From: Campylobacterales bacterium
GTDB taxonomy: Bacteria; Campylobacterota; Campylobacteria; Campylobacterales; QNZT01
Assembly (NCBI GenBank): GCA_027066435.1
Contig: JAMONX010000046.1
Location: forward strand, 32,895-96,894
Length of the DNA stretch: 64,000 bases
Direction: 5' to 3'
Below the pieces are notes generated by a model. That model saw only the letters and a program-made list of their open reading frames with translations, was not told the origin of the DNA and ran no database searches. The number at the start of each line of letters is the position of its first letter. Position 1 is the stretch's first letter. The position numbers and the translations under genes were made by a program. This document shows, in pieces, positions 8,750 to 23,504 of the stretch.

Positions 8750-11053
8750 CTATTTCTCTAAAAGCACATCCTGTTTTTCATATACCAATCCTTCTTTTTT
8801 CCCCACATACTCCAACTCACCAACTATCTCATTTTTCTTCATCTCAATACCAGTTGGAACTCTCACACTATGAATCTGCACCGCCGTTTGTTTAAAGTTT
8901 GGTTCAAAAGATTTTGGGTCAAAAAGTGATTGAGTTAATCTGTTGATCAACTCGGTGTTAAAATGAAACGGTACAAAAACATCTCCTTCCCTAACTACTT
9001 GTGTCACTTTTACAGTTATATCTTCTACCTTGCCACGAGGAGAACTTATAGCAATCTTTTCGCCACTTTTTACTTTTAGTTTATCTGCATCCTTTGGATT
9101 TAACTCTATCCAAGCTTCAGGAGCTAAATTATCAAGAATAGCAATAGTTCCTGTCTTTGTTCTTGTGTGAAACTGTTCAACGGTTCTTCCTGTATTTAGA
9201 GTTAATGGAAACTTCTCACACAGAGACTCCTCCATCGGCTCCCAATCAGCACAGACAAATTTAGGCTTACCATCATCAGTAGAACAAGGCATATCTTTGC
9301 CGTAGAGTCTTTTTGTTCCATTTGGATTTTTTTCATTGCACGGCCATTGAATTCCGCCAAGTTTTTCTATTTTTTGATAACTCATAGAGCTATAATCACA
9401 CAATCTTCCATAACTCACTTTTTGCCACTCTTTAAATGCATCTAGTGGCTCTTCCCAATCTTTGAAAAGTAGTTCATTTACCCCTTCAAAATATTTTGAG
9501 AACTCCAAAACGATATGAAAATCACTCATACTTTTTCCTAGTGGTTCTACCGCTTTTTTAGCTCTATTGCATCTTCTCTCGCTATTTGTATAGACTCCCT
9601 CTTTTTCACTCCAAGTAGAAGCTGAAAAAACTATATCTGCAATCTTTGCAGTATCACTCATAAATGAATCTTGCACTACTAAAAGCTCCAACTTTTCAAA
9701 AGCAGCTCTTAGACGAGATTGGTCAGGATAACTTATTAGTGGATTTGTAGCTATAATCCAAAGTGCTTTTATCTCACCTTTTTCTATAGCTTCTATGATT
9801 TGCGGATATGAGTAACCTCTCTTTTTAGGGACTATCTCTACAGGCACATTTACAATACTTGCATACTCTTCTCTATCATAAGAGCTTGCAAAATTTCTAT
9901 ATCCTGGAATTGAGCTTGTAAATCCACTCTCTCTGCTTCCCATAGCATTGCACTGCCCTGTTAAGCTCATAGGAGAACTACCCTCTTTTCCAAGATTACC
10001 CGTCATCAATGCTAAATTACATATCGCTGATACAGTATCAGTTCCCAAAGCTGATTGATTAACACCCATAGTCCATGCACTCATAGCTTTTTCTGCTCCT
10101 GCATAGACTCTTGCTAATTCATAAAGCTCTTTAACTCCGATACCTGTGATATTTGATACCTCTGATGGAGGGTATTTTTGGATATGTTTTACAAACTCTC
10201 TATATCCAGATGCACTATCTCTCATAAACTCTTCATCAGCCCAGCCCTGCTCCCAGATAATATGGCACAATCCATTGATAAGTGCTAAATCACTTCTAGG
10301 CTTTAAAGGTACAAAGATATCAGCCATATTTGCTGTTTTTGAGTGCCTTGGATCTATAACGATTATAGTTGGTTTTTTACCTGTTATTTTTTTATTTTTT
10401 GCGATATGAAGTTTAAGAATTGGATGATTATCTGCTATATTTGCACCTATTAACATAATGACATCAGCATGTGAAAAGTCTTCATAACAACCAGGAGGTC
10501 CATCACTTCCAAAACTCTGCTTATACCCCATCACTGCACTTGCCATACAAAGTGTGGTATTTCCATCAAAATTATTTGTTTTTAAACCAAGTTGGACAAA
10601 TTTTCCAAGTACATAAAACTCCTCTGTTAAAAGTTGTCCAGTTGAGATGCAAGCAACAGAACCCGAGCCATAGACTTTTGCAACTTCTTTAAACTTATCA
10701 CTCACTTTTAAAAATGCTTCATCCCACTCAACCTCAACCAATTTACCATTTTTTCTAATTTGTGGTGACAAGGCTCTATTATCAGCTCTTACCATCTCAT
10801 ATTGACTTAAACCTTTTGGACAAAGTGTTCCTTTGCTTACTGGATGTGCAGGATCTCCTTTTGTATAAACAGGTTTACCATCTTTTACCCCGATATATAA
10901 ACCGCACCCTACCCCACAATAACCACAAGTTGAACGAACCCAACTATCTGGTTTTTTTGCTTTGGCAACTTTACCAAATATCTCATCATCAACTAACTCA
11001 TATTTTTCATTTTTGATGTCAAATCCCAAAAAATCTTTTATTTTTTTTATCAT
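8750..11053 (-). CDS. Molybdopterin oxidoreductase, cytoplasmic Nas/Nap-type nitrate reductase catalytic subunit (putative)
   Basis: N-terminal FeS motif CGYCGVGCG...x26...CPKG. Mo-ligand region GNTTLCMASAVMGYKQSFG (Cys, not Sec). No twin-arginine signal. ATGA overlap with the upstream FeS/anchor gene. Confidence 0.75.
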   Translation of the reverse strand: MIKKIKDFLGFDIKNEKYELVDDEIFGKVAKAKKPDSWVRSTCGYCGVGCGLYIGVKDGKPVYTKGDPAHPVSKGTLCPKGLSQYEMVRADNRALSPQIRKNGKLVEVEWDEAFLKVSDKFKEVAKVYGSGSVACISTGQLLTEEFYVLGKFVQLGLKTNNFDGNTTLCMASAVMGYKQSFGSDGPPGCYEDFSHADVIMLIGANIADNHPILKLHIAKNKKITGKKPTIIVIDPRHSKTANMADIFVPLKPRSDLALINGLCHIIWEQGWADEEFMRDSASGYREFVKHIQKYPPSEVSNITGIGVKELYELARVYAGAEKAMSAWTMGVNQSALGTDTVSAICNLALMTGNLGKEGSSPMSLTGQCNAMGSRESGFTSSIPGYRNFASSYDREEYASIVNVPVEIVPKKRGYSYPQIIEAIEKGEIKALWIIATNPLISYPDQSRLRAAFEKLELLVVQDSFMSDTAKIADIVFSASTWSEKEGVYTNSERRCNRAKKAVEPLGKSMSDFHIVLEFSKYFEGVNELLFKDWEEPLDAFKEWQKVSYGRLCDYSSMSYQKIEKLGGIQWPCNEKNPNGTKRLYGKDMPCSTDDGKPKFVCADWEPMEESLCEKFPLTLNTGRTVEQFHTRTKTGTIAILDNLAPEAWIELNPKDADKLKVKSGEKIAISSPRGKVEDITVKVTQVVREGDVFVPFHFNTELINRLTQSLFDPKSFEPNFKQTAVQIHSVRVPTGIEMKKNEIVGELEYVGKKEGLVYEKQDVLLEK

Positions 11054-12633
11054 CTTTGATTCCCCGCAAAAAAATTCCCAGCAAGTCCAAGTGGAACAAC
11101 TGTAACAAAAAATAGATATCGCCCTAAAAGTTCACTAACTAATGCTCCAAGAACACTAACTCCCAATAAAAATGAAGCTACTCCAAAAGAATCACTTGCT
11201 ATAAAAAGTATTGCAAATAGTGGTAACACCAACGCAAAAATTCCAAGTGAAAAGAGCCTAATATTTTTAAACTTTCCAAAATTCTCTTCTAAAAGTGTTT
11301 TAGTTCGGTTTAGTTGATAGTAGTTTTTATGTTCACTATCTAAATATTTATAAAAAATCATCTCATCATAGATCAAAAAGAGTTGATACATACCTAACAT
11401 CAGCGTTACTGACAAAATCACCATCACACTTTTATCACTATCACTTCCAAGCAAAATAAAGGCAAGGAGTAAAAAACCAACATAAAAAACACCAAAAAAT
11501 CTGTATGTGGTTGATTTTTTATCCCATGAAGGTCTTGCTTTTACTCTATAAATCATAGATTGGGCATATATACCATAAATCCCAGTAACAAGAACAGCTG
11601 CTTGAAGAAGTGTCATCAAAAAGTCACCTAATCCAAAGAGATAACCTAAAATAACAAAATTTAAACCAAGAGCATAAACTCCCAAAGCTAAAGCCTCACG
11701 AGAGAGCCAAGAGGTTTTTATATTTTTCATAGCTGTTATTGCTAAAAAAGGGCGTCCTAGATGCAAAGCTGAGAGTGGCAAACCAATAGCTGCGGGTAAA
11801 AAGACAAAAATTGCTAACCATATATTTGCAGATGCAAGATTGCCCCCAAAAAGAGTTAAAATCTGCCCTAAAAAGAGGGCTAAAAATCCCCCAACGGAAA
11901 CTTGAGTAAGAACTGTCATAAATACCAATGGCAACTCTTTATGAGCGGGTTTTAAGATATGTTCATCTGCTGGTTTCACATCTCCTTGAAATTTAGGAAG
12001 TGTATATCTAGTTGTTGGTTTTGTGATAGAGATATCTGGTAAATGTGGAGCAACACCTTGTGAAGCCATACCATTTTTAATCCACTCTTCTTTATTTACA
12101 ACCTCTATCTCAATAGCTCCTGCTGGACAAGCTTGTACACATGCTGGAGTTTGTCCATTCTCTAACTTTTCGTGACACATATGACACTTTGTTACAATGC
12201 CTCGATCTTGATTAAAAACAGGCACTTCATACGGACAATTCCAAGTGCAATATTGGCATCCGATACAAACATCATCATCATGATATACGATACCATTTTC
12301 AAATTTAATATAAGAGTTTGTCGGACACCCTTTTAGACACTCTGGATCAATGCAGTGGTTGCAACTCATAGAGTTAAATAGTTGTGAAACTTGTGGAAAC
12401 TCTCCCGCTTCCATCTCTCCTACTCTTCTCCATTTGATATCTGCTGGGTTATTGTTTTGCTCATTGCAAGCCACTTCACAGCAGTGACATCCCACACAAA
12501 CACTCATATCAAAATGAAACCGATACTGTTCACCCTCTTTTAACTCAGGTATATCTATCTGATAATTACCGCATTGCATCCCTGTATCTGCTTTGTAATT
12601 TATAAAACTTTCAAGTGGTGTGTTTTGGTTCAT
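11050..12633 (-). CDS. Fused 4x[4Fe-4S] ferredoxin (DmsB-like) and DmsC-like 8-TM membrane anchor
   Basis: Cys clusters CVGCHCCEVAC, CNHCIDPECLKGCP, CIGCQYCTWNCP and CHMC...CVQACPAGAI, followed by ~8 hydrophobic helices. The likely start is MNQNTPLES at 12633; the ORF track extends it to 12687. Confidence 0.75.
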   Translation of the reverse strand: MNQNTPLESFINYKADTGMQCGNYQIDIPELKEGEQYRFHFDMSVCVGCHCCEVACNEQNNNPADIKWRRVGEMEAGEFPQVSQLFNSMSCNHCIDPECLKGCPTNSYIKFENGIVYHDDDVCIGCQYCTWNCPYEVPVFNQDRGIVTKCHMCHEKLENGQTPACVQACPAGAIEIEVVNKEEWIKNGMASQGVAPHLPDISITKPTTRYTLPKFQGDVKPADEHILKPAHKELPLVFMTVLTQVSVGGFLALFLGQILTLFGGNLASANIWLAIFVFLPAAIGLPLSALHLGRPFLAITAMKNIKTSWLSREALALGVYALGLNFVILGYLFGLGDFLMTLLQAAVLVTGIYGIYAQSMIYRVKARPSWDKKSTTYRFFGVFYVGFLLLAFILLGSDSDKSVMVILSVTLMLGMYQLFLIYDEMIFYKYLDSEHKNYYQLNRTKTLLEENFGKFKNIRLFSLGIFALVLPLFAILFIASDSFGVASFLLGVSVLGALVSELLGRYLFFVTVVPLGLAGNFFAGNQR

Positions 12634-12730
12634 AGTCTCTTTTCTTTTTATATTAATTATATTACACATTATGGTACAATCATACATAATTGTTGGTCAA
12701 AAAGTAATCAAATGCTAAAGGTAAAGATTA

Positions 12731-14299
12731 ATGAAATATATAATAACTCTCTTTTTAATTTTAATAATTATTCTAACGGGCGGATATTACCTACTCTTTA
12801 CAGCTAGTGGAAATGATAAGATTACCCCCTATATCAATAACTATATCTCAAAAAAAATTCCAAAATATACAAAAGTAAGACTTAACAACTTTAGACTAAC
12901 ACCAACAAGAATTAATGCAAATATTACAATAAATGATAGCCTTAATGCAAAAATAATCGGCGATTTTGCACTAACAGGAAAAAAATTTGATTTAGATTAT
13001 CGCCTCTTTTCTAAGCGTTTTAAAGTAAAAAACTTTGTAATGCAAGATAAGCTTGACTTAATAGGAAAAATAAAAGGAGACATTGAACATATTTTTATAG
13101 AGGGATCGGGAAAAGCTATCAATTCAGATGTAAGTTATACCCTAGAAATTGACAAAAAGATTATAAAAGATATTCAAATTGATATAGAAAAAGGAAATTT
13201 AAAAAGTCTGTTGTTGCTTACTGGACAAAAACCTTTTGCATCTGGAGAGCTTGACCTTTATATAAATATGCCAAAACTTGACTCTAAAAATCCAATAGGC
13301 GATGCAAAATTGGTTTTACATCAAGGAACTATTAATAGCGATTTAATTTATAAAGAGTTTAATATTACTCTTCCTGATAACTTCACTTACCAAGCTAACT
13401 TAAAATCCAAACTAAAAAATAATTATGCAACACTTGATGGCGATATCAAAACAACCTTAGCGAATCTCTTTTTAAAGAATTCAAAAGTTTATTACAAAGA
13501 TAAAAAGCTTTTAACGGATTATCAACTTGTAGTTAAGGAGTTATCAAAACTAGAATCGTTAATTGGGAAGAAACTAAAAGGAGAACTGAATATTATCGGT
13601 AAGGCTATGTTTGATAAAACATTAATGCTAGCAGGTTATACAAAAAGTTTTGGTGGAAAGATAGATTTTACTTTAAAAGATTCAAAAGTAGATGCAACCC
13701 TCAAAGGTGTGCCTTTGACAAAAATCATGCATACACTTATCTATCCAGAAGTTTTTGAGAGTGCAGTTTTTGGAGATATAGAGTACAATTTTATCAGTAA
13801 AAGAGGTGAAATTAATGCAGAACTTGTAAATGCTAGATTTTTACCAAATAAAATAACAACCTCTTTAAAAGAGTATGCAAAAGTAGATTTAATAAAAGAG
13901 AAATACAACCAAACAACATTTACTGCAGATTTAGATGCTAATGAAGTTTTGTTTGACTTTAAAGCAAAAAGCGACAAGAGTTATATATCCATCTTGGATG
14001 CAAAATTTTTAAAATCTCAAAACAAAATTGACGCAAAATTTGATATCAACATTGATGAAAAAGATTTTTCAGGAACTATCAAAGGTGATATCTTAAAACC
14101 AAGAGTAAAACTAGATACTTCACAATACTTAAAAACAAAAATTATCAAAGAAGTAGATAAGTTTATCGATGAAAAGATAAGTGATAAAACAAAACAAAAA
14201 CTCCAAAAAGAGTTAGAAAAGATAGGTACGAGAGATTTAAATGTTTCAAAAAAGGCTGAAGAAGAGTTAAGAGGCTTGTTCAGAAATCTTTTCAATTAG
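12731..14299 (+). CDS. Hypothetical membrane-anchored, beta-rich 522-aa protein (possibly AsmA/TamB-like)
   Basis: One N-terminal TM helix (IITLFLILIIILTGGYYLLF), a long Lys/Asp-rich beta-type region, and a charged C-terminal helix. The family assignment is a guess. Confidence 0.35.
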   Translation: MKYIITLFLILIIILTGGYYLLFTASGNDKITPYINNYISKKIPKYTKVRLNNFRLTPTRINANITINDSLNAKIIGDFALTGKKFDLDYRLFSKRFKVKNFVMQDKLDLIGKIKGDIEHIFIEGSGKAINSDVSYTLEIDKKIIKDIQIDIEKGNLKSLLLLTGQKPFASGELDLYINMPKLDSKNPIGDAKLVLHQGTINSDLIYKEFNITLPDNFTYQANLKSKLKNNYATLDGDIKTTLANLFLKNSKVYYKDKKLLTDYQLVVKELSKLESLIGKKLKGELNIIGKAMFDKTLMLAGYTKSFGGKIDFTLKDSKVDATLKGVPLTKIMHTLIYPEVFESAVFGDIEYNFISKRGEINAELVNARFLPNKITTSLKEYAKVDLIKEKYNQTTFTADLDANEVLFDFKAKSDKSYISILDAKFLKSQNKIDAKFDINIDEKDFSGTIKGDILKPRVKLDTSQYLKTKIIKEVDKFIDEKISDKTKQKLQKELEKIGTRDLNVSKKAEEELRGLFRNLFN

Positions 14300-14402: not shown

Positions 14403-15686
14403 ATGGCAGGCATTAAAGATTTAAAAGGACAGGGGCATTGGCCCACCCTTTTAGCAGCGTTTTTATATTTTGATTTTAGTTTTATGGTTTGGGTAATTTT
14501 GGGACCTTTATCTACAGAGATTTCTGAGTCATTGAAACTAGCTCACAATTTTATTATGACACCAGATCAAAAAGCAACACTTCTTGCTATTCCAATTTTA
14601 GCTGGTGCAATTTTAAGAATTTTATTAGGATTTTTAGTTGATAAAATAGGGCCAAAGAAAACAGCACTTATGGCACAATCTATAGTAATAGCTGGTCTAT
14701 TTTATGCTTATTTTAAAGGTTCTTCTATTACTTATGATGAGCTATTAGTAGTTGCATTTTTATTAGGTTTTGCAGGGGCTTCATTTGCTGTGGCACTCCC
14801 ACAAACTGGGCAATGGTATCCACCAAAACTTCAAGGGATTGTTTTAGGAATTGCAGGGGCCGGAAATATCGGTGTTGTTATAGATTTTATATTTGCACCA
14901 AAAATTGCGGAGCTTTGGGGTTGGGAAAGTGTATTTTTGATAGGTGGTGTGCTATCTACTATTATTTTCATAGCCTACTGTTTTATGGCAAAAGATGCAC
15001 CACCAGAGGTTTATACACCAAGACCTAAAAAACTTAAAGATTACGGAAAACTTTTAAAAGACAAAGATACCTGGTGGTTTAGTCTTTTTTATGCTGTTAG
15101 TTTTGGTGGGTTTGTAGGATTTGCTGCATATATGAAAGTCTATTTGATGAATACTTATCAAGTAGATATGAGTGAGTTTGGAGAAAATGTAATAAACGAG
15201 CAAAATGTTAAAGTAGTTGCTGGTTATTTTGGAGCATTTTGTATCTTTGCAGGAGCAATTCTAAGACCATTTGGCGGAGCAATTGCTGATAAGATTGGTG
15301 GCATAAAATCACTCTATTTCTTCTATGGTATAGTTGCAATTCTAGCGGTAGTAACAGCTACAATCGAAATACCATTTTATTTAGCAATTTTTGTACTATT
15401 TTTAATAATGGCTAGTCTTGGTATGGCAAATGGTGCAGTTTTCCAACTAGTGCCACAAAGATTTGGTAAAGATATAGGTATCATGACAGGATTAATCGGA
15501 TGTGCTGGAGGACTTGGTGGATTTGCACTTATCAAAACTCTTGGTTGGAGTAAAGGTGCATTTGATGGATATACAGCAGGATTTTTAATATTTGCTTGCC
15601 TTGTATTGTTAGCAATTACAGGAATTTCTTTGGTAAAAACAAGATGGAGAACAACATGGGGTGCAAAAGCAGGTGGAATAATATAA
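14403..15686 (+). CDS. narK: MFS nitrate/nitrite porter (NNP family)
   Basis: 427 aa with ~12 TM helices. Two NNP nitrate-signature-like motifs, GIAGAGNIGVV and SLGMANGAVFQLVPQRF. AGGAG RBS. Confidence 0.85.
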   Translation: MAGIKDLKGQGHWPTLLAAFLYFDFSFMVWVILGPLSTEISESLKLAHNFIMTPDQKATLLAIPILAGAILRILLGFLVDKIGPKKTALMAQSIVIAGLFYAYFKGSSITYDELLVVAFLLGFAGASFAVALPQTGQWYPPKLQGIVLGIAGAGNIGVVIDFIFAPKIAELWGWESVFLIGGVLSTIIFIAYCFMAKDAPPEVYTPRPKKLKDYGKLLKDKDTWWFSLFYAVSFGGFVGFAAYMKVYLMNTYQVDMSEFGENVINEQNVKVVAGYFGAFCIFAGAILRPFGGAIADKIGGIKSLYFFYGIVAILAVVTATIEIPFYLAIFVLFLIMASLGMANGAVFQLVPQRFGKDIGIMTGLIGCAGGLGGFALIKTLGWSKGAFDGYTAGFLIFACLVLLAITGISLVKTRWRTTWGAKAGGII

Positions 15687-17315
15687 ATGGCAAATATTAA
15701 CCTATCTGGTTTTTCATTAGCAAAAGGGAAAGAACTTAAAGGCGATGATGCCTTTTTGTTCAAACAGATAGACAATCTTACAATCTCTGTTGTTTGTGAT
15801 GGAGTTGGAAGTGCAGAGCATGGAGCTGAAGCTGCTCAAAGAGTTTGTAATTTTTTGATAAACTCTCTTAAAAATCGCCCACTTTCGTGGAGCATCCAAA
15901 AATCTATTACCCACTTTATAAAAAACATCAATAAAATCCTCTATACCGAATCAATAGACTCTTATGAGAGAGAAGAGCTTATAACTACACTTACATTGGT
16001 GGTCATTGAAGGAGAACAACTCTATGGAGCGAATGTTGGAGATAGTAGAATATATTTACAAAGAGATGGAAAATTATCCCAACTTTCATCAGATCATAGT
16101 GCTGATGAAGAGGGATTAGATGGGGTCTTAACCCAAGCCATAGGTATAAGTGAAGATGTAGAACCTTATTATTTTGAAAATCTAATAGCACCCCATGATA
16201 AAATTTTAATGTGCAGTGACGGCTTATACACAATCTTAGACGACGATAAATTAAATGATGGAATCTCAGGAGGTGCTCACTATCTTATAAAAAAAGCTAG
16301 TAAATTGATGAATGATAATCTTCCTGATGATACAACGGCAGTTATTATTGATATAAAAGAGACAGATTTGTTCTGTTTGCTAAAACAAGCAAAAGTAGAT
16401 ATTCCTGAAAATCTAAAAGCTGGACAAAATATAGATGGCTATAAACTTATAAAACCTTTAGTACAAAATGAGAGAACTTGGCTTTGTGAAAATAATACGA
16501 TAGAGTATGTAATAAAGTTTGCTCCATATGAAGCACTTGAAGATGAACGCCTACTTGATTTGTTTGTAAAAGAGGCTTGGAATGCTAAAAGATTGAAAGC
16601 TGGATATTTTCCAAAATCTGTAATTCCAAGAAATAGAACTTCAAGATATTATATTATGCAGCTGGTAAAGGGTGATGAAGTAAAAAAATATATCAAAAAG
16701 AGATTATTATCAATTGATGAGGGTGTCTCTTTGGCAAAATTTTTATTGGAGATGAATCAATTTTTATTGAAGTATGATTTAGTTCACGGAGATATAAAAC
16801 CAGAAAATATCATTAGAGCTCAAAGGAAAGGTAAAACTTATTATAAAATGGTTGATTTTGGAAGTATTATCGAGATATTTTCGATAAATTCCAGAGCTGG
16901 CACTCCATCATATCTTGCTCCTGAGAGATTTAAGGGAGAAAATATAAATGAACAAAGTGAAATATTTTCTTTAGGTGTAACACTCTATGAAACACTTACT
17001 GGAAAACTTCCATATGGTGAGATAGAACCATTTCAAAATCCAACATTTAAGAAACCAAAAAATCCAACACTACACAATCCAAAAATCCCTAAATGGTTTG
17101 AGAGTGTAATTTTAAGAGCGATATCAGCTGATTCTTCATTTAGATATCAAAACTACTCTGAGATGCTATTTGAATTAGAAAATCCTAAAAAAGTAAAACC
17201 ATTTTTTGACAAGGATGCATCCCTGATTGAAAAAGAACCAGTCAAAGTATATAGAGCAGGTTTTATTATCATGCTGGTTATAAATATCTTTTTGTCATAT
17301 AAGTTATTTTTATAA
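15687..17315 (+). CDS. Bifunctional PP2C-type phosphatase / Ser-Thr protein kinase with a C-terminal TM anchor
   Basis: PP2C motifs VVCDGVGS, GANVGDSRIY, LMCSDGLY and DDTTAVIID. Kinase motifs VIKF (Lys), HGDIKPENI, VDFGS and GTPSYLAPE. Tail AGFIIMLVINIFLSYKLFL. Its ATG directly follows the narK TAA. Confidence 0.85.
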   Translation: MANINLSGFSLAKGKELKGDDAFLFKQIDNLTISVVCDGVGSAEHGAEAAQRVCNFLINSLKNRPLSWSIQKSITHFIKNINKILYTESIDSYEREELITTLTLVVIEGEQLYGANVGDSRIYLQRDGKLSQLSSDHSADEEGLDGVLTQAIGISEDVEPYYFENLIAPHDKILMCSDGLYTILDDDKLNDGISGGAHYLIKKASKLMNDNLPDDTTAVIIDIKETDLFCLLKQAKVDIPENLKAGQNIDGYKLIKPLVQNERTWLCENNTIEYVIKFAPYEALEDERLLDLFVKEAWNAKRLKAGYFPKSVIPRNRTSRYYIMQLVKGDEVKKYIKKRLLSIDEGVSLAKFLLEMNQFLLKYDLVHGDIKPENIIRAQRKGKTYYKMVDFGSIIEIFSINSRAGTPSYLAPERFKGENINEQSEIFSLGVTLYETLTGKLPYGEIEPFQNPTFKKPKNPTLHNPKIPKWFESVILRAISADSSFRYQNYSEMLFELENPKKVKPFFDKDASLIEKEPVKVYRAGFIIMLVINIFLSYKLFL

Positions 17316-17406: not shown

Positions 17407-19167
17407 ATGGATTTTAAAACATTAAATAAATATACTAAAAACTTACGCCTTCTTTATATAGAAGATGATGAAGAGATTTGCAAACAAAGCGTAGAACTAC
17501 TAGAACTATTTTTTGAAGATGTCATCATCTGTTACAACGGAGAAGAAGCTCTTGAAACTTATAAATCTGACTTATATTTAACAAACAGACTATTTGATAT
17601 TATCATAACCGATATTCATATGCCTAAAATGGATGGAATAGAGTTAATTGAAAATGTTTTAAGATTAAATCCTAAACAAGCTATAACTGTTATCTCAGCA
17701 GATGGTGGTAACTCTTTTACACTACTTAAACTTATAAATTTAGGCATTAACAGTTTTTTACTAAAACCATTAAAAGAGAATCAATTAATAGATACTCTAT
17801 ATAAAGCCTCAAAGAATTTATATAATGAAAAAATTGCACTTCAATACAATCAAAAGATAACCACATCAAATCTAAGACTAGAACAAGAGATAAAAAGAAG
17901 AACAAAAAGACTAAAAGAACAACTCTATACAGATAACTTAACAGGATTAAAAAACCGAAGTGCCTTAGGAAGAGATATTGACAATAACTCTTACAATATG
18001 ATAGCTCTTATTGATATTGATCGTTTTCAATTTATAAATGATCTCTACGGTGCAAAAATAGGAAACCAAGTTATCAGAGAGTTTACAAGCTTCTTAAAGA
18101 AAAATGTAGATAAAACTCATTATAAACTTTATCGAACATCAGGGGATGAGTTTGCAATCTGCCATAAAGGAGAAGATGCTCTTCACTTTGAAAATTTTAT
18201 AATTAACCTTAGTAAAAGTGTTACAAATTTGCCTCTTTTTATTCAAAAACTAACTGATACAATATATCTAGATGCAACTATCGGTCTATCTTTTGAGAAA
18301 AAACAACTTTTAACAAATTGTGACATAGCTCTGCGTCATGCAAAGAAAAATAAAAAACCACTTATAATATATAGAGATGAAATAAATACTCTTAAAAATA
18401 TAAAAGATGCACTAGAGTGGAAATATAAAATTCGTCATGCATTAGAAAATGACAATATTATTCCCATTTTTCAACCAATTGTTGACAAAGAGGGAGAAAT
18501 TTTAAAGTATGAAGCCTTAATGAGACTAAAAGAGCATACAGTCGATGGTGAACAACTAGTCTCTCCTAGCTTTTTCTTAGAGACCGCAGTTTTAACAAAA
18601 CAATATCCAAAACTTTCACATACAATAATCAAAAAATCACTCCAACACTTAATAAAAAATGATATAACTTTATCAATAAATCTAACATACAGTGACTTTA
18701 TAGATGAACAAATCATAACACTTATCACTGATATATTAGACAAAGAAGAGATTGGTAATAGACTTATTTTTGAAATTGTTGAGAGTGAAGATATCAAAGA
18801 CTATGCTTTACTACAGAGCTTTATAGAAAAGTTTAGAAAATATGGTGTTAAAATTGCAATTGATGATTTTGGGAGTGGTTTTTCAAACTTTGGGAATATT
18901 ATACAAACTAAACCAGATTATCTAAAAATTGATGGTTCACTTATAAAAAATATTGATACAAGTAGCCATACACAAACTATGGTAAGAGCAATAATGCAAA
19001 TTGCAAATGAGTTAGATATAAAAATAATTGCCGAATTTGTACACTCAAAAGAGGTTTTTGAAGCACTACATAAATTTGATATAGATGAGTTTCAAGGTAA
19101 CTATTTTTATGAGCCTTCAACTGCATTAATAGAAAAAAAAGGTACAATAAAACTAAAAACAATCTAA
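17407..19167 (+). CDS. Response regulator with GGDEF and EAL domains (c-di-GMP turnover)
   Basis: REC (LLYIEDDEE, IIITDIHMPKMDG). GGDEF domain with SGDEF in place of GGDEF. EAL motifs YEALMRL, EIVESE, DDFGSGFSNF, KIDGS and QGNYF. Confidence 0.85.
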   Translation: MDFKTLNKYTKNLRLLYIEDDEEICKQSVELLELFFEDVIICYNGEEALETYKSDLYLTNRLFDIIITDIHMPKMDGIELIENVLRLNPKQAITVISADGGNSFTLLKLINLGINSFLLKPLKENQLIDTLYKASKNLYNEKIALQYNQKITTSNLRLEQEIKRRTKRLKEQLYTDNLTGLKNRSALGRDIDNNSYNMIALIDIDRFQFINDLYGAKIGNQVIREFTSFLKKNVDKTHYKLYRTSGDEFAICHKGEDALHFENFIINLSKSVTNLPLFIQKLTDTIYLDATIGLSFEKKQLLTNCDIALRHAKKNKKPLIIYRDEINTLKNIKDALEWKYKIRHALENDNIIPIFQPIVDKEGEILKYEALMRLKEHTVDGEQLVSPSFFLETAVLTKQYPKLSHTIIKKSLQHLIKNDITLSINLTYSDFIDEQIITLITDILDKEEIGNRLIFEIVESEDIKDYALLQSFIEKFRKYGVKIAIDDFGSGFSNFGNIIQTKPDYLKIDGSLIKNIDTSSHTQTMVRAIMQIANELDIKIIAEFVHSKEVFEALHKFDIDEFQGNYFYEPSTALIEKKGTIKLKTI

Positions 19168-22100
19168 TGAAAAAACTCTATATACTTGTACTATTACTTC
19201 TATCTCAACTCATCAATGCATCCCAACTAGAAAATGTTTCAATCCAACTTAAATGGAAGCACTCTTTCCAGTTTGCTGGTTATTATGCAGCCATTGAAAA
19301 AGGCTTTTACAAAGAAAAAGGACTTAATGTCACACTAAAAGAGATAGATATGAGTCGTGATTTTATACAAGATGTAGTAGATGGAAAGTCTCAATACGGT
19401 GTATCAGACAGCTCTTTGATAATACGCCGTCAAGAAAATGAACCTGTTGTATTAATATCACAAATTTTCCAGCACTCTCCACTCGTTTTAATTTCACATC
19501 GTGATTCAAATATTACCACCCCTTATGAGATGAGCAATAAAAAAATCATGTATTCACTTAATAATAGCGGTGGCACTCCCTTTAATGCACTCTTTTTAAA
19601 TTCTATAGGCACATATAAAAATCTTAACATAACAGAATTTACAAACTATCAAGATTTTATAGATAAGAAAGTTGATGTTACTTCAGCTTACTCAACTTCA
19701 CAACCATACATGCTAAAAAAACAAGGTATAGACATAAATATAATCGACCCTAAAAGTTATGGTATAGATTTTTACGGAGATAATTTCTTTACAACTGAGA
19801 AAGAGCTTCAAAATCATCCCAAAAGAGTGGAAAAAATGAGACAAGCTACACTAAAGGGCTGGGAATATGCACTCTCCAACCAAAAAGAGATAATAGATAT
19901 AATAATTCAAAAATATGCATCTAAGAGCGATAAAGATTTACTCTCTTTTGAAGCAAGAGGTATATATCAGATGGTTATACCTGACTTAACAAAGATTGGC
20001 ACTATTAATAAAGATAAATATGAAAAAGTTATAAAAACTTATCATAAACTAGGATTAGTAAAAAAATTAAAAATAGATGAGGGCTTCTTTTATCAGAAAA
20101 AGTTACAAAAAGTTCTTTTAACAAATGAAGAAAAAAGTTGGATAAAAGAGCATCCCATTGTAATTGTTGGAGGAGGACCAGACTGGGCACCTTTTGATTT
20201 TGTGAATAAAAAAGGTAAATACAATGGAATTTCGAATGATTATTTAAATCTTTTAAGTAAATATACAAATCTAAAATTTAAAGTAGTTGTTGATAAATGG
20301 AGCAATAATCTTCAAAAAATGAAAGATGGCAAAATTGATCTTTTACATGCAATTTACTATACAGATAAACGCTCAACATATATGAACTATACAAAGCCCT
20401 ACTTTGAGATGCTTGATTACTTTTTTATCCGAGATGATTTAAATGTAGAAACAATTGAAGATTTAAATGGAAAGAGAGTTGCAGTTCCTAGAGAATATGC
20501 ACATGAAGATATCCTTAAAAAGGAGTTTCCTAAGATTAAAATTATCACTGTTGAAACTTTTTCACAATCTATAGATGCCGTTTTAGAAAATAAAGCAGAT
20601 ATATTATTTAATACTTATGCATCTCTCTCTTATGTTCTCAAAAGAGAAGGTATAAATACAATTATCCCATTTAAATCCTATCGAGGACATGGCATGATGA
20701 GACTGCATATGAGTACGAATCAAAATAACCTCATACTTGCACAAATCATAGATAAAGCTCTTATTGCAATCACAGATAATGAGAAAAAAGAGATTTATGA
20801 TAGATGGATTGGTAAAAATATTCAAAATACTCAAAAGCTTATTAATTTAACAAACAAAGAGAAAGAATGGATTAAAGAAAATCACAATATTACATTTGCT
20901 GGTGATCCTGACTGGATGCCATTTGAATCTTTTGACGAACAGGGCAATTATAAAGGAATTGTTGCTGATTATTTAAAAGAGGTAGAAAACAGGGTTGCTT
21001 TATCCTTTAAACCTATAACTGTAAAAAGCTGGCGGGAGACACTAAAAATTGCACAAGATGAAAATGTTGATGTAATTTCTGGAGATATTGATAATATCAT
21101 TTTAGCAAAAAAATATGAACCAATTACTCCATATTTTGAAACACCAATTGTAATTGTTACAAATAGCAAACACTCATTTATCAATGATTTAGAAGATATC
21201 AAAGATAAAAAAATAGCTATTATCAATGATTATGGCTATACAAATAGGTTAAAATCAAGTTATAAAAATATCAACTTTATAAAAATACCCAATATTCAAG
21301 AAGCATTTGACAAACTTCTATTTGAAAATATAGATGCACTTTTACTCTCTATGCCTGCAGCTTCATATTTGATTAAAACAAGGGGATTAGACTCTTTAAA
21401 GATTTCTGGAAAAACTGTAGTATCTATGCATCCTACTCTCTTTGTACATAAAGATAAAGCTTTACTTCATAGTATAATTGAAAAAACAATGGCTGGAATT
21501 GGAAATAGTAGAAATAGAGAAATTTTAGGAAAATGGCAAAAGATTGAATTTGCAAAGAGGGTAGATTATACTTTAATATACCAACTACTTGGTATTTTTT
21601 TACTTTTTATCTTAGGTGCACTTTACTGGAATAGAAAACTTAAAGCTGAAGTTATAAAAAGAGAAGAGAGTGAGATGCAGATAAGAACACTTATGGATAT
21701 TATCCCTCTCAATATTCTTGTTACCACTTATGGAGGGAAAATACTCCTAGCAAATCCTCAAACTCTTAAATATCATCAAATCCCAAAAGAGGATATAAAA
21801 AACTATAATATTTTGGATTTTTATTCAAATCCAAAAGAGCGAGAAGTTGTATTAAGTGAATTGAAAAAAAATGGAAGTGTAAAACAGAAAATTGTAAAGT
21901 TTAAGAGCTCAAATAGTAAAACTCATGATTTGATGATATCACTCCTGCCCATTACTTATCATAAACAAAATGCGCTACTTGCTCTTGGAGTTGATTTAAC
22001 AGATAGACTTAAAATGGAAAAAGAGCTATCACTTGCTAAAGAGAGTGCAGAAAAAGCAAATTTAGCTAAAAGTGAATTTTTAGCAAATATGTCTCACGAA

Positions 22101-23504
22101 ATACGAACACCAATGAACTCGGTTATCGGATTTACTGAACTTTTATCTAAACTTATAAAAGATCCTATCCAAAAAGATTATCTTGATTCTATTCATAGGG
22201 GTGGTCAATCACTTCTTGCTATCATAAATGATATTCTCGACCTTTCAAAGATTGAAGCTGGCAAAATGGAAATTACTTTGGAGAGTGTAGATATAAAACA
22301 GTTGATATATGAGATGGAATCAATTTTTAGTGTAAAACTTATACAAAAAAATTTGATTTTTGAAGTAGATATTGATGAATCTATTCCTAAATACTTACTT
22401 CTTGATAACACTAGAGTTAGACAAATTCTTTTTAATGTCATAGGTAATGCTATCAAATTTACTAATAATGGGAAAATAAAACTTTCAATTAAAAAAACTT
22501 ATATTGACAATAAAAACAGCAAAGTAAATTTAATTTTAATCATTGAAGATAGTGGCATTGGAATCAAAGAAGAAAACCTTGAGTATATATTTGATTCGTT
22601 TGAACAACAACAAGGGCAAAATCATAAATATGGAGGAACAGGACTAGGACTTGCAATCTGCAAAAAACTCTTATCCATTATGAATGGGAAGATAAGTGTA
22701 GAAAGTAAATTTGGCGAAGGTTCAAAATTTACAATTTTTTTAGAAAAAATCTCAGTTAGTTCTGTAGAAAACATTATAGATAAAGCTAAAAATATAACAA
22801 AAGAGTTAAAATTCAAACCCTCTATTGTCCTTATAGTAGACGATATAACAGATAATAGAAAATTAGTCCACTCCGCACTTAAACCTTATGGTCTTACTAT
22901 CATTGAAGCAGTTAATGGAAAAGATGCATTAGAAAAACTAAAAAACATTAAAGTTGATCTTATTTTTATGGATATCAAAATGCCTATTATGGATGGATAT
23001 GAAGCAACTCAAATCATAAAAAATGACCCCCAACTAAAAAAAATTCCCATAATAGCTCTTACAGCTTCAGTGATGGGAAAAGATATGGAAAAAATCATAA
23101 ATTATAAATTTGATGGATATTTACGAAAACCTGTTGGAATTGATAAGTTAGTAGAAGAGATGGCTAGATTTTTACCACACCAATCACTAGAGATAAAAGA
23201 AGATAATGGGATGCAAATAAGTCAAAATGGATATAAATATCTTGAATCTGTAATAGAAACATTAGAGAAGAAATTTCTTATAACATGGGAAAAAATTAAA
23301 GATAAAGGTGATTTTGAACCAATAGAAAATTTTGCTAATGAACTTAAGAGTTTGATTGAAAACAAAGGTATTTATTTACTTGAAGGGTTTGCAAAAGAGC
23401 TAAAACTAAGCTGTGAAAGTTTTGATATAGAACAAATTGATTTTCTAATGAATAACTTTCCAAATGTTATAAAAAAATTAAAAAAGATGTTAAAAAATGA
23501 GTAA
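19167..23504 (+). CDS. Hybrid sensor histidine kinase (1445 aa): three periplasmic solute-binding domains, TM, PAS, HisKA, HATPase, REC, Hpt-like tail
   Basis: Signal peptide. NMT1/SsuA-like domain (SIQLKWKHSFQFAGYYAA). Two SBP_bac_3-like repeats (LTNEEKSWIKEHPIVIVGGGPDWAPFDF and LTNKEKEWIKENHNITFAGDPDWMPFES). TM helix LIYQLLGIFLLFILGALYW. H-box LANMSHEIRTPMN. G-box GGTGLGLAICKKL. REC IVLIVDD...LIFMDIKMPIMDG. Confidence 0.85.
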   Translation: MKKLYILVLLLLSQLINASQLENVSIQLKWKHSFQFAGYYAAIEKGFYKEKGLNVTLKEIDMSRDFIQDVVDGKSQYGVSDSSLIIRRQENEPVVLISQIFQHSPLVLISHRDSNITTPYEMSNKKIMYSLNNSGGTPFNALFLNSIGTYKNLNITEFTNYQDFIDKKVDVTSAYSTSQPYMLKKQGIDINIIDPKSYGIDFYGDNFFTTEKELQNHPKRVEKMRQATLKGWEYALSNQKEIIDIIIQKYASKSDKDLLSFEARGIYQMVIPDLTKIGTINKDKYEKVIKTYHKLGLVKKLKIDEGFFYQKKLQKVLLTNEEKSWIKEHPIVIVGGGPDWAPFDFVNKKGKYNGISNDYLNLLSKYTNLKFKVVVDKWSNNLQKMKDGKIDLLHAIYYTDKRSTYMNYTKPYFEMLDYFFIRDDLNVETIEDLNGKRVAVPREYAHEDILKKEFPKIKIITVETFSQSIDAVLENKADILFNTYASLSYVLKREGINTIIPFKSYRGHGMMRLHMSTNQNNLILAQIIDKALIAITDNEKKEIYDRWIGKNIQNTQKLINLTNKEKEWIKENHNITFAGDPDWMPFESFDEQGNYKGIVADYLKEVENRVALSFKPITVKSWRETLKIAQDENVDVISGDIDNIILAKKYEPITPYFETPIVIVTNSKHSFINDLEDIKDKKIAIINDYGYTNRLKSSYKNINFIKIPNIQEAFDKLLFENIDALLLSMPAASYLIKTRGLDSLKISGKTVVSMHPTLFVHKDKALLHSIIEKTMAGIGNSRNREILGKWQKIEFAKRVDYTLIYQLLGIFLLFILGALYWNRKLKAEVIKREESEMQIRTLMDIIPLNILVTTYGGKILLANPQTLKYHQIPKEDIKNYNILDFYSNPKEREVVLSELKKNGSVKQKIVKFKSSNSKTHDLMISLLPITYHKQNALLALGVDLTDRLKMEKELSLAKESAEKANLAKSEFLANMSHEIRTPMNSVIGFTELLSKLIKDPIQKDYLDSIHRGGQSLLAIINDILDLSKIEAGKMEITLESVDIKQLIYEMESIFSVKLIQKNLIFEVDIDESIPKYLLLDNTRVRQILFNVIGNAIKFTNNGKIKLSIKKTYIDNKNSKVNLILIIEDSGIGIKEENLEYIFDSFEQQQGQNHKYGGTGLGLAICKKLLSIMNGKISVESKFGEGSKFTIFLEKISVSSVENIIDKAKNITKELKFKPSIVLIVDDITDNRKLVHSALKPYGLTIIEAVNGKDALEKLKNIKVDLIFMDIKMPIMDGYEATQIIKNDPQLKKIPIIALTASVMGKDMEKIINYKFDGYLRKPVGIDKLVEEMARFLPHQSLEIKEDNGMQISQNGYKYLESVIETLEKKFLITWEKIKDKGDFEPIENFANELKSLIENKGIYLLEGFAKELKLSCESFDIEQIDFLMNNFPNVIKKLKKMLKNE

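Follow-up and report, generated by a model that had tools for sequence, protein, structure and literature searches.

A narK gene abutting the gene of a tail-anchored PP2C phosphatase-Ser/Thr kinase fusion in a Campylobacterales genome, and the association of this enzyme family with nitrogen-anion transporters

How nitrate and nitrite uptake is rapidly controlled at the post-translational level is well understood for plants, yeasts and cyanobacteria; for most other bacteria, to our knowledge, no mechanism has been described. The plant and yeast examples include the phosphorylation of NRT1.1 at T101 by CIPK23, the control of NRT2.1 involving S501 and the PP2C phosphatase CEPH, and the pair formed by Ynt1 and Npr1, with NRT2 and Ynt1 belonging to the same NNP family as NarK. 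At the level of the transporter, bacterial control of nitrogen uptake is exemplified by the plugging of AmtB by GlnK and by the action of PII on the cyanobacterial NrtABCD system, with tPphA as the phosphatase of phosphorylated PII. Here we describe a gene pair located on a 64,000 bp stretch of the genome of a Campylobacterales bacterium (GenBank assembly GCA_027066435.1, contig JAMONX010000046.1, positions 32,895 to 96,894; hereafter the window) having an overall G+C content of 32%, in which the gene for a NarK-type transporter is directly followed by a gene encoding the fusion of a PP2C phosphatase and a Hanks-type Ser/Thr kinase (hereafter the fusion protein).

A comparable arrangement was described for Pseudomonas sp. 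UW4, whose nasST-nasA-ppkB-nasDEC-cobA cluster carries a Ser/Thr kinase gene directly after nasA; the authors only speculated on its role, citing plant and yeast transporter kinases as an analogy (PMC3596284). This bears out the statement, made in a sequence-only reading of the window, that Ser/Thr kinase genes are found beside NNP transporters in Pseudomonas without an established mechanism. PA1782 of P. aeruginosa was listed as a predicted kinase in 2021 and 2024 (PMC8560001, PMC11197903), and in the full-text literature we found no functional study of the family, only the nasA-ppkB genome paper and lists of predicted kinases. Like the gene in the window, ppkB/PA1782 is located immediately 3' of an NNP transporter gene; a PP2C domain and a tail anchor are unconfirmed for the Pseudomonas protein, and a homology search aimed at PA1782 returned Porticoccaceae and Cycloclasticus and no Pseudomonas sequence. 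The two loci further differ in that the window possesses a molybdoenzyme (Mo enzyme) with an iron-sulfur (FeS)-DmsC anchor and no NirBD. Homologues of the fusion protein are named 'bifunctional protein-serine/threonine kinase/phosphatase' by NCBI (PGAP), a family of the same architecture and clear homology, whose name describes domains and carries no function. The proteins bearing this name in Sulfurovum sp. NBC37-1 and Sulfurovum sp. share 63-64% identity with the window protein; for those of Proteobacteria, the identity is 23-28% over 90-99% of its length.

The fusion protein of the window is a new member of this annotated and previously noticed family, which is without a characterised function. 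New here are the breadth of its association with transporters, including the unrelated FNT channels, its topology with a tail anchor, the loss of the kinase glycine-rich loop throughout the family, and specific candidate phosphosites. Our preferred reading, to which we give neither more nor less than even confidence, is that the enzyme would act as a reversible phospho-switch on its partner transporter, gating the uptake of nitrogen anions. Directly established are the observations from which this reading is built, namely that the adjacency is conserved, that the catalytic residues are intact, that the enzyme has a tail anchor and that the tail threonines of the transporters are conserved. The gene pair comprises the following features (lengths in amino acids, aa):

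14403..15686, + strand: NarK-type (NNP family, short 'clade A') nitrate/nitrite MFS transporter, 427 aa (Pfam, TIGR00886, PDB alignment)
15642..15662, + strand: codons of RWRTTWG, the C-terminal juxtamembrane motif of NarK (residues 414-420; T417, T418), candidate phospho-acceptor (conservation)
15671..15676, + strand: AGGTGG, Shine-Dalgarno-like site within the narK 3' end (read from the sequence)
15687..17315, + strand: tail-anchored bifunctional PP2C phosphatase / Hanks-type Ser/Thr kinase, 542 aa (Pfam PP2C_2, PP2C, Pkinase)
15687..16352, + strand: PP2C (PPM) phosphatase domain, residues about 1-222 (invariant residues, Foldseek)
16419..17186, + strand: protein kinase domain, residues about 245-500, with a non-RD HGD loop and no glycine-rich loop (invariant residues, Foldseek)
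17238..17312, + strand: C-terminal transmembrane tail anchor, residues 518-542 (hydrophobicity, AlphaFold2)

The loci used for comparison were gathered by homology to the fusion protein alone, from genome contigs, annotated plasmids and chromids, metagenome contigs, and contigs encoding selected homologues; 39 of them, 14 from Campylobacterota and 25 proteobacterial or metagenomic, had enough upstream sequence to be informative. The scan of genome contigs with a single protein returned only Campylobacterota relatives and three generic Ignavibacteria kinases, and among the 80 loci retrieved from metagenomes by a generic kinase catalytic-loop pattern about 8 were true family members. The family as a whole counts 218 representatives of 50% identity clusters at E <= 1e-30, and one homology search returned 7,168 clusters of 90% identity at E <= 1e-40.

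A NarK or FNT gene is located immediately upstream of the fusion gene, on the same strand, in 29 of the 39 informative loci (10 short NarK, 8 long NarK and 11 FNT). The sequence-only reading had held that a gene pair not conserved in relatives would speak against a functional link; the pair is kept, with NarK immediately upstream in 9 of 14 Campylobacterota loci and NarK or FNT in 20 of 25 proteobacterial or metagenomic ones. Elsewhere, transporter and fusion gene are separated by one intervening gene (NirA in L006, a hybrid histidine kinase in L115), the upstream slot holds an ABC importer (L013) or an amino-acid-type APC permease (L027), a divergent NarK or Amt gene adjoins the fusion gene (L018, L023 and L034), or nas genes are found 2-7 kb away (L005 and L019). 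Overall, 38 of the 39 loci have a context of nitrogen transport or assimilation, the exception being L003, a Campylobacterales locus in which a gene for an ATP:guanido phosphotransferase (arginine-kinase-like; L003:352-1524) lies upstream of the fusion gene. The hosts cover Campylobacterota and Alpha-, Beta- and Gammaproteobacteria, on chromosomes as well as plasmids, and include among cultured strains Sulfurovum sp. NBC37-1, Thiomicrorhabdus sediminis, Azospirillum lipoferum 4B, Methylobacterium nodulans ORS 2060 and, on plasmids, Acinetobacter johnsonii.

The partner transporters represent three unrelated folds (two NNP clades, FNT and ABC), and the reductases found beside the module differ (Mo enzyme with FeS-DmsC, NirA, or NirBD with NasA) or are absent. 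The transporter is therefore the constant partner. Of the two possible targets of switching suggested from the sequence, nitrate uptake or the adjacent reductase, the comparison of loci favours the transporter over the reductase.

Both open reading frames (ORFs) of the window and their junction, ...GGAATAATATAAATGGCA, are as first read: the fusion-gene ATG abuts the TAA stop codon of narK (TAAATG) with a spacer of 0 nucleotides (nt), and the product is 542 aa long. An AGGTGG hexamer is located inside the narK end, 10 nt before this ATG, and no terminator-like site was found on the + strand between the two genes. TAAATG together with AGGTGG is consistent with co-transcription and coupled translation of narK and the fusion gene. 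These two signals fit the translational linkage proposed at the outset; the abutting stop and start codons are particular to it, as the spacer between transporter and fusion gene varies from 7 to about 235 nt elsewhere. The nearest relatives of both proteins in the contig scan come from Campylobacterales, Sulfurospirillum, Sulfurimonas and Sulfurovum genomes.

The fusion protein conforms to the order of its family, in which PP2C, kinase and a single C-terminal helix are arranged within about 540-600 aa. Pfam assigns residues 16-185 to PP2C_2, 316-447 to Pkinase (4.4e-22) and 293-486 to PK_Tyr_Ser-Thr; none of the NCBIfam models reached its cutoff on the protein. The motifs picked out by eye were each found at their place, with DGVGS at 38-42, GDSR at 118-121, SDG at 177-179 and DDTT at 214-217 for the phosphatase, and VIKF at 275-278, HGDIKPEN at 367-374, DFG at 390-392 and APE at 411-413 for the kinase. 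An alignment of 47 full-length sequences (the window protein and 46 homologues, 24-82% identical to it) displays as invariant, in the PP2C domain, D21, D38-G39, G118-D119, R121, D136, D178-G179 and D214, which include the PPM/PP2C metal ligands D21, D38, D119, D178 and D214. In the kinase domain, K277, E296, H367, D369, N374, D390-F-G, T406, P412-E413 and R486 are invariant, and the Hanks-type catalytic core is present from the VAIK Lys through the subdomain XI Arg. A catalytically dead kinase had been named as grounds for abandoning the idea; judged by the invariance of K277, E296, D369, N374 and D390, the kinase is not obviously dead. The window protein is predicted to be a Mn/Mg-dependent phospho-Ser/Thr phosphatase and a Ser/Thr kinase.

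Three features set the protein apart from textbook Hanks kinases, all of them noted in the sequence-only reading. The GxGxxG loop is missing from the window protein (DGYKLIKPLVQNERTW) and was found in 0 of 356 family members; a beta1-beta2 hairpin is nonetheless modelled by AlphaFold2. Its catalytic loop is HGD, hence non-RD. HGD or HAD was found in 118 of 118 Campylobacterota members, HQD in 116 of 116 members of a gammaproteobacterial set, and HRD in 30 of 54 representatives; since the loop depends on the lineage, the family is mixed RD and non-RD. The C-terminal transmembrane tail also holds: residues 518-542 form the single hydrophobic stretch of the protein (KD19 up to 2.08 versus at most 1.02 elsewhere), modelled as one helix (518-541), and a hydrophobic tail is present in 349 of 356 family members and in all 13 rows of one family alignment. 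The AlphaFold2 model, based on the 47-sequence alignment (mean predicted local distance difference test, pLDDT, 87.2; predicted template modelling score, pTM, 0.59), shows a PP2C sandwich at 1-223, a two-lobed kinase at 252-500 and the terminal helix, with pLDDT over residues 1-222 mostly 84-94. Using Foldseek, the PP2C domain matched PppA, tPphA, PstP and Stp1 (target TM-score 0.75-0.87, E 1e-15 to 1e-16) and the kinase domain PknB and Stk1 (TM-score 0.72-0.82); no solved chain spanning both domains was retrieved. No sensor domain is recognisable by Pfam or in the AlphaFold2 model. The membrane helix lies at the extreme C-terminus, with nothing outside the cell, which places both enzymes on the cytoplasmic side, held by a short tether. 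Defence-system kinases (MAD6, PglW) and lanthionine synthetase were considered as identities for the protein and rejected, their matches being far under cutoff.

The transporter comprises about 12 hydrophobic stretches in its 427 aa, in agreement with a 12-helix MFS protein, and residues 17-375 match Pfam MFS_1 (1.9e-43). Its best NCBIfam match by far is TIGR00886 (NarK family) with 252.1 bits, under the cutoff of 311.7, which is cleared by a long-clade NarK partner from Catenovulum (342.7 bits). Only E. coli NarK and NarU matched in the PDB (1e-16). In the alignment with E. coli NarK, R72 (GAILR) corresponds to GALLR, R288 (ILRPFGG) to ARSAGG, and AGAGNIG (151-157) to GLGNMG; CAGGLGG is found at 367-373. 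The NNP family is marked by two substrate-site arginines, R89 (helix 2) and R305 (helix 8) in E. coli NarK, and by glycine-rich signatures in helices 5 and 11; both arginine-bearing segments and the glycine-rich signature are conserved in the window NarK. Orthologues 74-81% identical to the window NarK adjoin the fusion gene in Campylobacterota. The window NarK belongs to a short clade (about 400-430 aa), labelled 'nitrate/nitrite transporter' or 'MFS transporter' in RefSeq, which includes the transporters of alphaproteobacterial and Paenibacillus nas clusters. To judge by its context, the window NarK would transport nitrate and/or nitrite: the window encodes a Nas-like Mo enzyme, and orthologues have NirA or NirBD as neighbours. 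The reading of a respiratory NarK serving NarGHI was rejected, the window having no nar genes and the context being that of a cytoplasmic Nas-like enzyme; a search of the window for nar genes, NirA, NirB, FNT and cynS returned none. The long NarK partners (about 490 aa; L022, L028, L032, L037, L040, L116, L117 and L118) have helices 6 and 7 separated by an insertion some 60 residues long, with two extra hydrophobic stretches and a conserved Ser/Thr-rich KGSTYFKPK...MEVTS after helix 6. Several nas clusters without a fusion gene (Sphingomonas, Acetobacter, Blastomonas) have the gene of an outer-membrane protein directly after the short NarK gene:

L119:7249-8454, L120:7249-8904 and L123:9182-10387: porin/alginate-export-like genes after short NarK

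The C-terminal tails of short-clade NarKs were compared between loci with and without the fusion gene. The sequence K-x-RWRTTWG is identical in all 16 short-clade NarKs from fusion-gene loci, which represent two phyla (13 Campylobacterota, plus Methylocystis, Azospirillum and Skermanella). For comparison, seven short-clade NarKs were taken from nas clusters having no fusion gene within 6-8 kb (equally distant from the window protein, at 42-49% identity); the first tail Thr is absent from all seven, the tails reading RWRATW (two), GWRSRWG, WKKTW, WKRTW, RRWMAK and RRWRADF. Among the FNTs encoded directly upstream of the fusion gene, 9 of 10 share a C-terminal TH[VY][RK]T-x-P-K-R. The tenth (L038:3951-4751) displays THFRE, with Glu replacing the tail Thr; a Thr-to-Glu change is of the phosphomimetic type that is sometimes found at real phosphosites. 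The FNT of L023, from another clade, is without the TH[VY][RK]T motif, and alignments to solved FNT structures end before the C-terminal tail. The C-termini of MFS and FNT proteins are cytoplasmic and would thus match a tail-anchored, cytoplasm-facing enzyme. T417/T418 of the NarK RWRTTWG motif and the Thr of the FNT TH[VY][RK]T motif are put forward as candidate phosphosites. A Thr in the central loop of NarK (T205, YTPRP) was dropped as a site, not being conserved among orthologues.

In a neighbour-joining tree of 37 family members, the proteins group largely by partner type and not by taxonomy, with robust clades for Campylobacterota (bootstrap 100/100) and for the alphaproteobacterial members linked to NarK-A (98/100). 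Two Azospirillum paralogues share only 34% identity with each other; with a protein of a different genus having the same partner type, each shares 61-63%. Co-diversification of the enzyme with the type of transporter is only partly supported.

The FNT partners include a clade found in a compact cluster of FNT, kinase-phosphatase and cyanase (cynS) genes (L021, L029, L026+L126 and L038), which is located on small mobilisable plasmids of Acinetobacter, Psychrobacter and Sulfitobacter and on one metagenome contig. This cluster suggests that the cargo of the cynS-linked FNT clade may be cyanate or nitrite. The best solved relative of the cynS-linked FNT is the Chlamydomonas LCIA channel.

Under the preferred reading, the module would consist of a nitrogen-anion transporter and a dedicated regulator in the same membrane. 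The single C-terminal helix tethers the regulator at the inner membrane face with both catalytic domains in the cytoplasm, where the kinase domain would phosphorylate a cytoplasmic segment of the partner transporter and the PP2C domain would strip the phosphate from it, and the balance of the two would set the amount of active nitrate/nitrite uptake. The best candidate site would be the basic juxtamembrane C-terminal tail (T417/T418 of NarK; the tail Thr of FNT), and the input would probably be the cellular nitrogen status or the conformational state of the transporter itself. The transporter as the substrate, the modified residue, the direction of the effect and the input signal are what we infer here.

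Several observations weigh against this reading. The second tail Thr is retained in 4 of the 7 unlinked NarKs, so that the RWRTTWG motif is perhaps partly structural; the sample of unlinked NarKs is moreover small and phylogenetically clumped, and 'unlinked' was judged on the locus and not on the whole genome. The long NarK clade (about 490 aa) is without the RWRTTWG tail, and no one site can therefore account for all partners. In the tree, the groups linked to FNT and to NarK-B (long NarK) are weak, with bootstrap values of 33 and 17 of 100. The kinase is without a glycine-rich loop, its ATP binding is for this reason atypical, and its activity is predicted only; for every family member, the switch itself is something we infer.

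The main rival, which we consider unlikely, is a relay in which the transporter is the sensor and not the substrate, and the enzyme phosphorylates another protein, such as a nitrate/nitrite reductase, a PII-type protein, an antiterminator or two-component nas regulator, or an enzyme of cyclic di-GMP (c-di-GMP) metabolism. Having no sensor domain, the fusion protein needs an external input, and its constant neighbour is the transporter. Signalling genes are also at hand: directly downstream in the window, a GGDEF-EAL response regulator and a hybrid histidine kinase of 1445 aa; in Sulfurovum NBC37-1, a hybrid histidine kinase/response regulator that separates NarK from the fusion gene; and in L005, L024, L031 and L033, genes with EAL or GGDEF domains. 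Furthermore, the closest PP2C structures include the cyanobacterial PII phosphatase tPphA, and c-di-GMP governs nitrate assimilation in P. putida (PMC10783516). However, the loci share no single conserved candidate target gene, and many of them are without a regulator, including the small plasmids with only FNT, fusion gene and cynS, and the relay leaves the conserved tail threonines of the linked transporters unexplained.

That the enzyme might be a self-contained switch, its PP2C domain mainly resetting autophosphorylation of the kinase or the kinase being a regulatory pseudo-kinase, with no two-way action on one substrate, appears to us a good deal less probable still. This would agree with the glycine-rich loop being absent throughout the family, with the non-RD loops (HGD or HQD) of most subfamilies and with the uncertain arrangement of the two domains (pTM 0.59), but the invariance of the catalytic residues K277, E296, D369, N374 and D390 is unexpected for a pseudo-kinase. 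Non-RD kinases, moreover, usually need no activation-loop phosphorylation and would therefore have less need of a built-in reset phosphatase. We give very little credence to the view that the adjacency is functionally meaningless, the gene merely travelling with transporters or regulating an unrelated process. It can draw on L003, where no transporter is found nearby, which also counts against the phospho-switch, and on L027 with its amino-acid-type APC permease. It has to explain the same gene order in four bacterial classes, with two unrelated transporter families, on chromosomes and plasmids, and the figures of 29 of 39 loci with immediate adjacency and 38 of 39 with a nitrogen context. Roughly estimated, a given transporter family would come to lie in the upstream position by coincidence in well under 1% of cases, and chance adjacency is excluded for practical purposes.

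A wider proposal, which goes beyond the phospho-switch and which we advance tentatively, as somewhat doubtful, is that the PP2C-kinase would be a dedicated regulatory subunit, tethered to the membrane, which no fewer than three unrelated classes of nitrogen-anion transporter (two NarK clades, FNT channels and an ABC importer) have acquired, toggling a juxtamembrane tail Thr in each, with the transporter itself as the sensor (a 'transceptor' switch). If true, a Hanks-type phospho-switch would be described for the first time for a nutrient transporter of bacteria. Ammonium has long been observed to inhibit nitrate uptake rapidly in non-cyanobacterial bacteria, and a 'transceptor' switch would provide a molecular basis for it.

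The surroundings of the pair fit a role of the window NarK in nitrate assimilation. Two genes for a putative reductase are located divergently upstream of narK:

8750..11053, - strand: Nas/Fdh-like molybdopterin oxidoreductase, 767 aa, context of the pair (Pfam Molybdop_Fe4S4, Molybdopterin, Molydop_binding)
11050..12687, - strand: fused 4Fe-4S (DmsB-like) and DmsC-like membrane anchor, 545 aa, partner of the Mo enzyme (Pfam Fer4_11 and DmsC)

The 767-aa Mo enzyme is a probable cytoplasmic nitrate reductase; no RR (twin-arginine) motif was found at its N-terminus, and its NCBIfam matches to Fdh-alpha, NasC and NasA are all under cutoff. No curated model reached its cutoff on the pair, which resembles an assimilatory nitrate reductase located in the cytoplasm, anchored to the membrane and possibly linked to quinol. 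The Mo enzyme recurs near NarK and the fusion gene in L010, L014, L037 and L118, and FeS-DmsC proteins 62-75% identical to that of the window are encoded beside the module in L004, L006, L007, L010, L012, L013 and L014; the protein is also present in Sulfurovum sp. NBC37-1. As a pair, the two genes recur beside the narK-fusion module both in Campylobacterota and in sulfur-oxidising Gammaproteobacteria (L010, L014, L037, L115 and L118). Orthologous loci add a NirA-type nitrite reductase; no nitrite reductase gene was found within the window.

Between the reductase genes and narK, an ORF of 522 aa (12731-14299, + strand) encodes a protein with one N-terminal hydrophobic segment, which had no Pfam or NCBIfam match and was not found in any related locus at E <= 1e-10. 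Downstream of the pair, the region 17407-23504 (+ strand) encodes the GGDEF-EAL response regulator and the 1445-aa hybrid histidine kinase, which carries NMT1-like and SBP_bac_3 periplasmic domains. Genes for c-di-GMP or two-component signalling are located near the module in L005, L012, L024, L031, L033 and L115.

The family is linked to transporters that feed the assimilation of nitrate, nitrite and possibly cyanate, and is present on mobile plasmids. Should it act as a phospho-switch, models of bacterial nitrogen uptake in soils, oceans and vents would gain a further level of regulation, and the family would offer a simple two-gene system in which to study how an opposing kinase and phosphatase set the activity of a transporter. 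T417/T418 of NarK, the tail Thr of FNT, and the catalytic residues K277, D369, D38 and D214 are the objects on offer for testing it.

Among known systems, the best sequence and structure matches of the fusion protein are Stk1/Stp1, PknB/PstP and PrkC/PrpC, which like it combine an opposing kinase and PP2C phosphatase. These Gram-positive pairs are, however, two separate proteins, whereas the window protein is one polypeptide. Their kinases carry an extracellular PASTA sensor after a mid-protein helix, whereas the window protein ends at its membrane helix; they have a glycine-rich loop and an RD loop, both absent from the window kinase, and act on cell-wall and division targets. Scored against the Gram-positive NCBIfam models, the fusion protein reached 117 against 230 and 109 against 450; the latter, NF033483 (Stk1 PASTA family; 108.6 bits versus a cutoff of 450), matched the kinase core only, and the protein is not a member of that family. 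AceK and HPrK/P likewise unite opposing activities on one substrate in one protein, as a ratio-type switch, but are soluble, have unrelated folds, and use one shared active site.

The plant and fungal systems are alike in principle, being based on Ser/Thr phosphorylation of nitrate transporters, with the NRT2.1 site located at the C-terminus and its phosphorylation reversed by a PP2C phosphatase. They are, however, eukaryotic, their enzymes are separate, soluble and not encoded beside the transporter, and there is no evidence of shared descent of the regulatory link. GlnK/AmtB and PII/NrtABCD follow the same logic of a fast post-translational shut-off of uptake, and the module recalls them in two respects: one family member adjoins an Amt gene, and the PP2C domain has tPphA as one of its best matches in structure. 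These systems act by binding of PII and not through a Hanks-type kinase, and no PII gene is located beside the module in the window.

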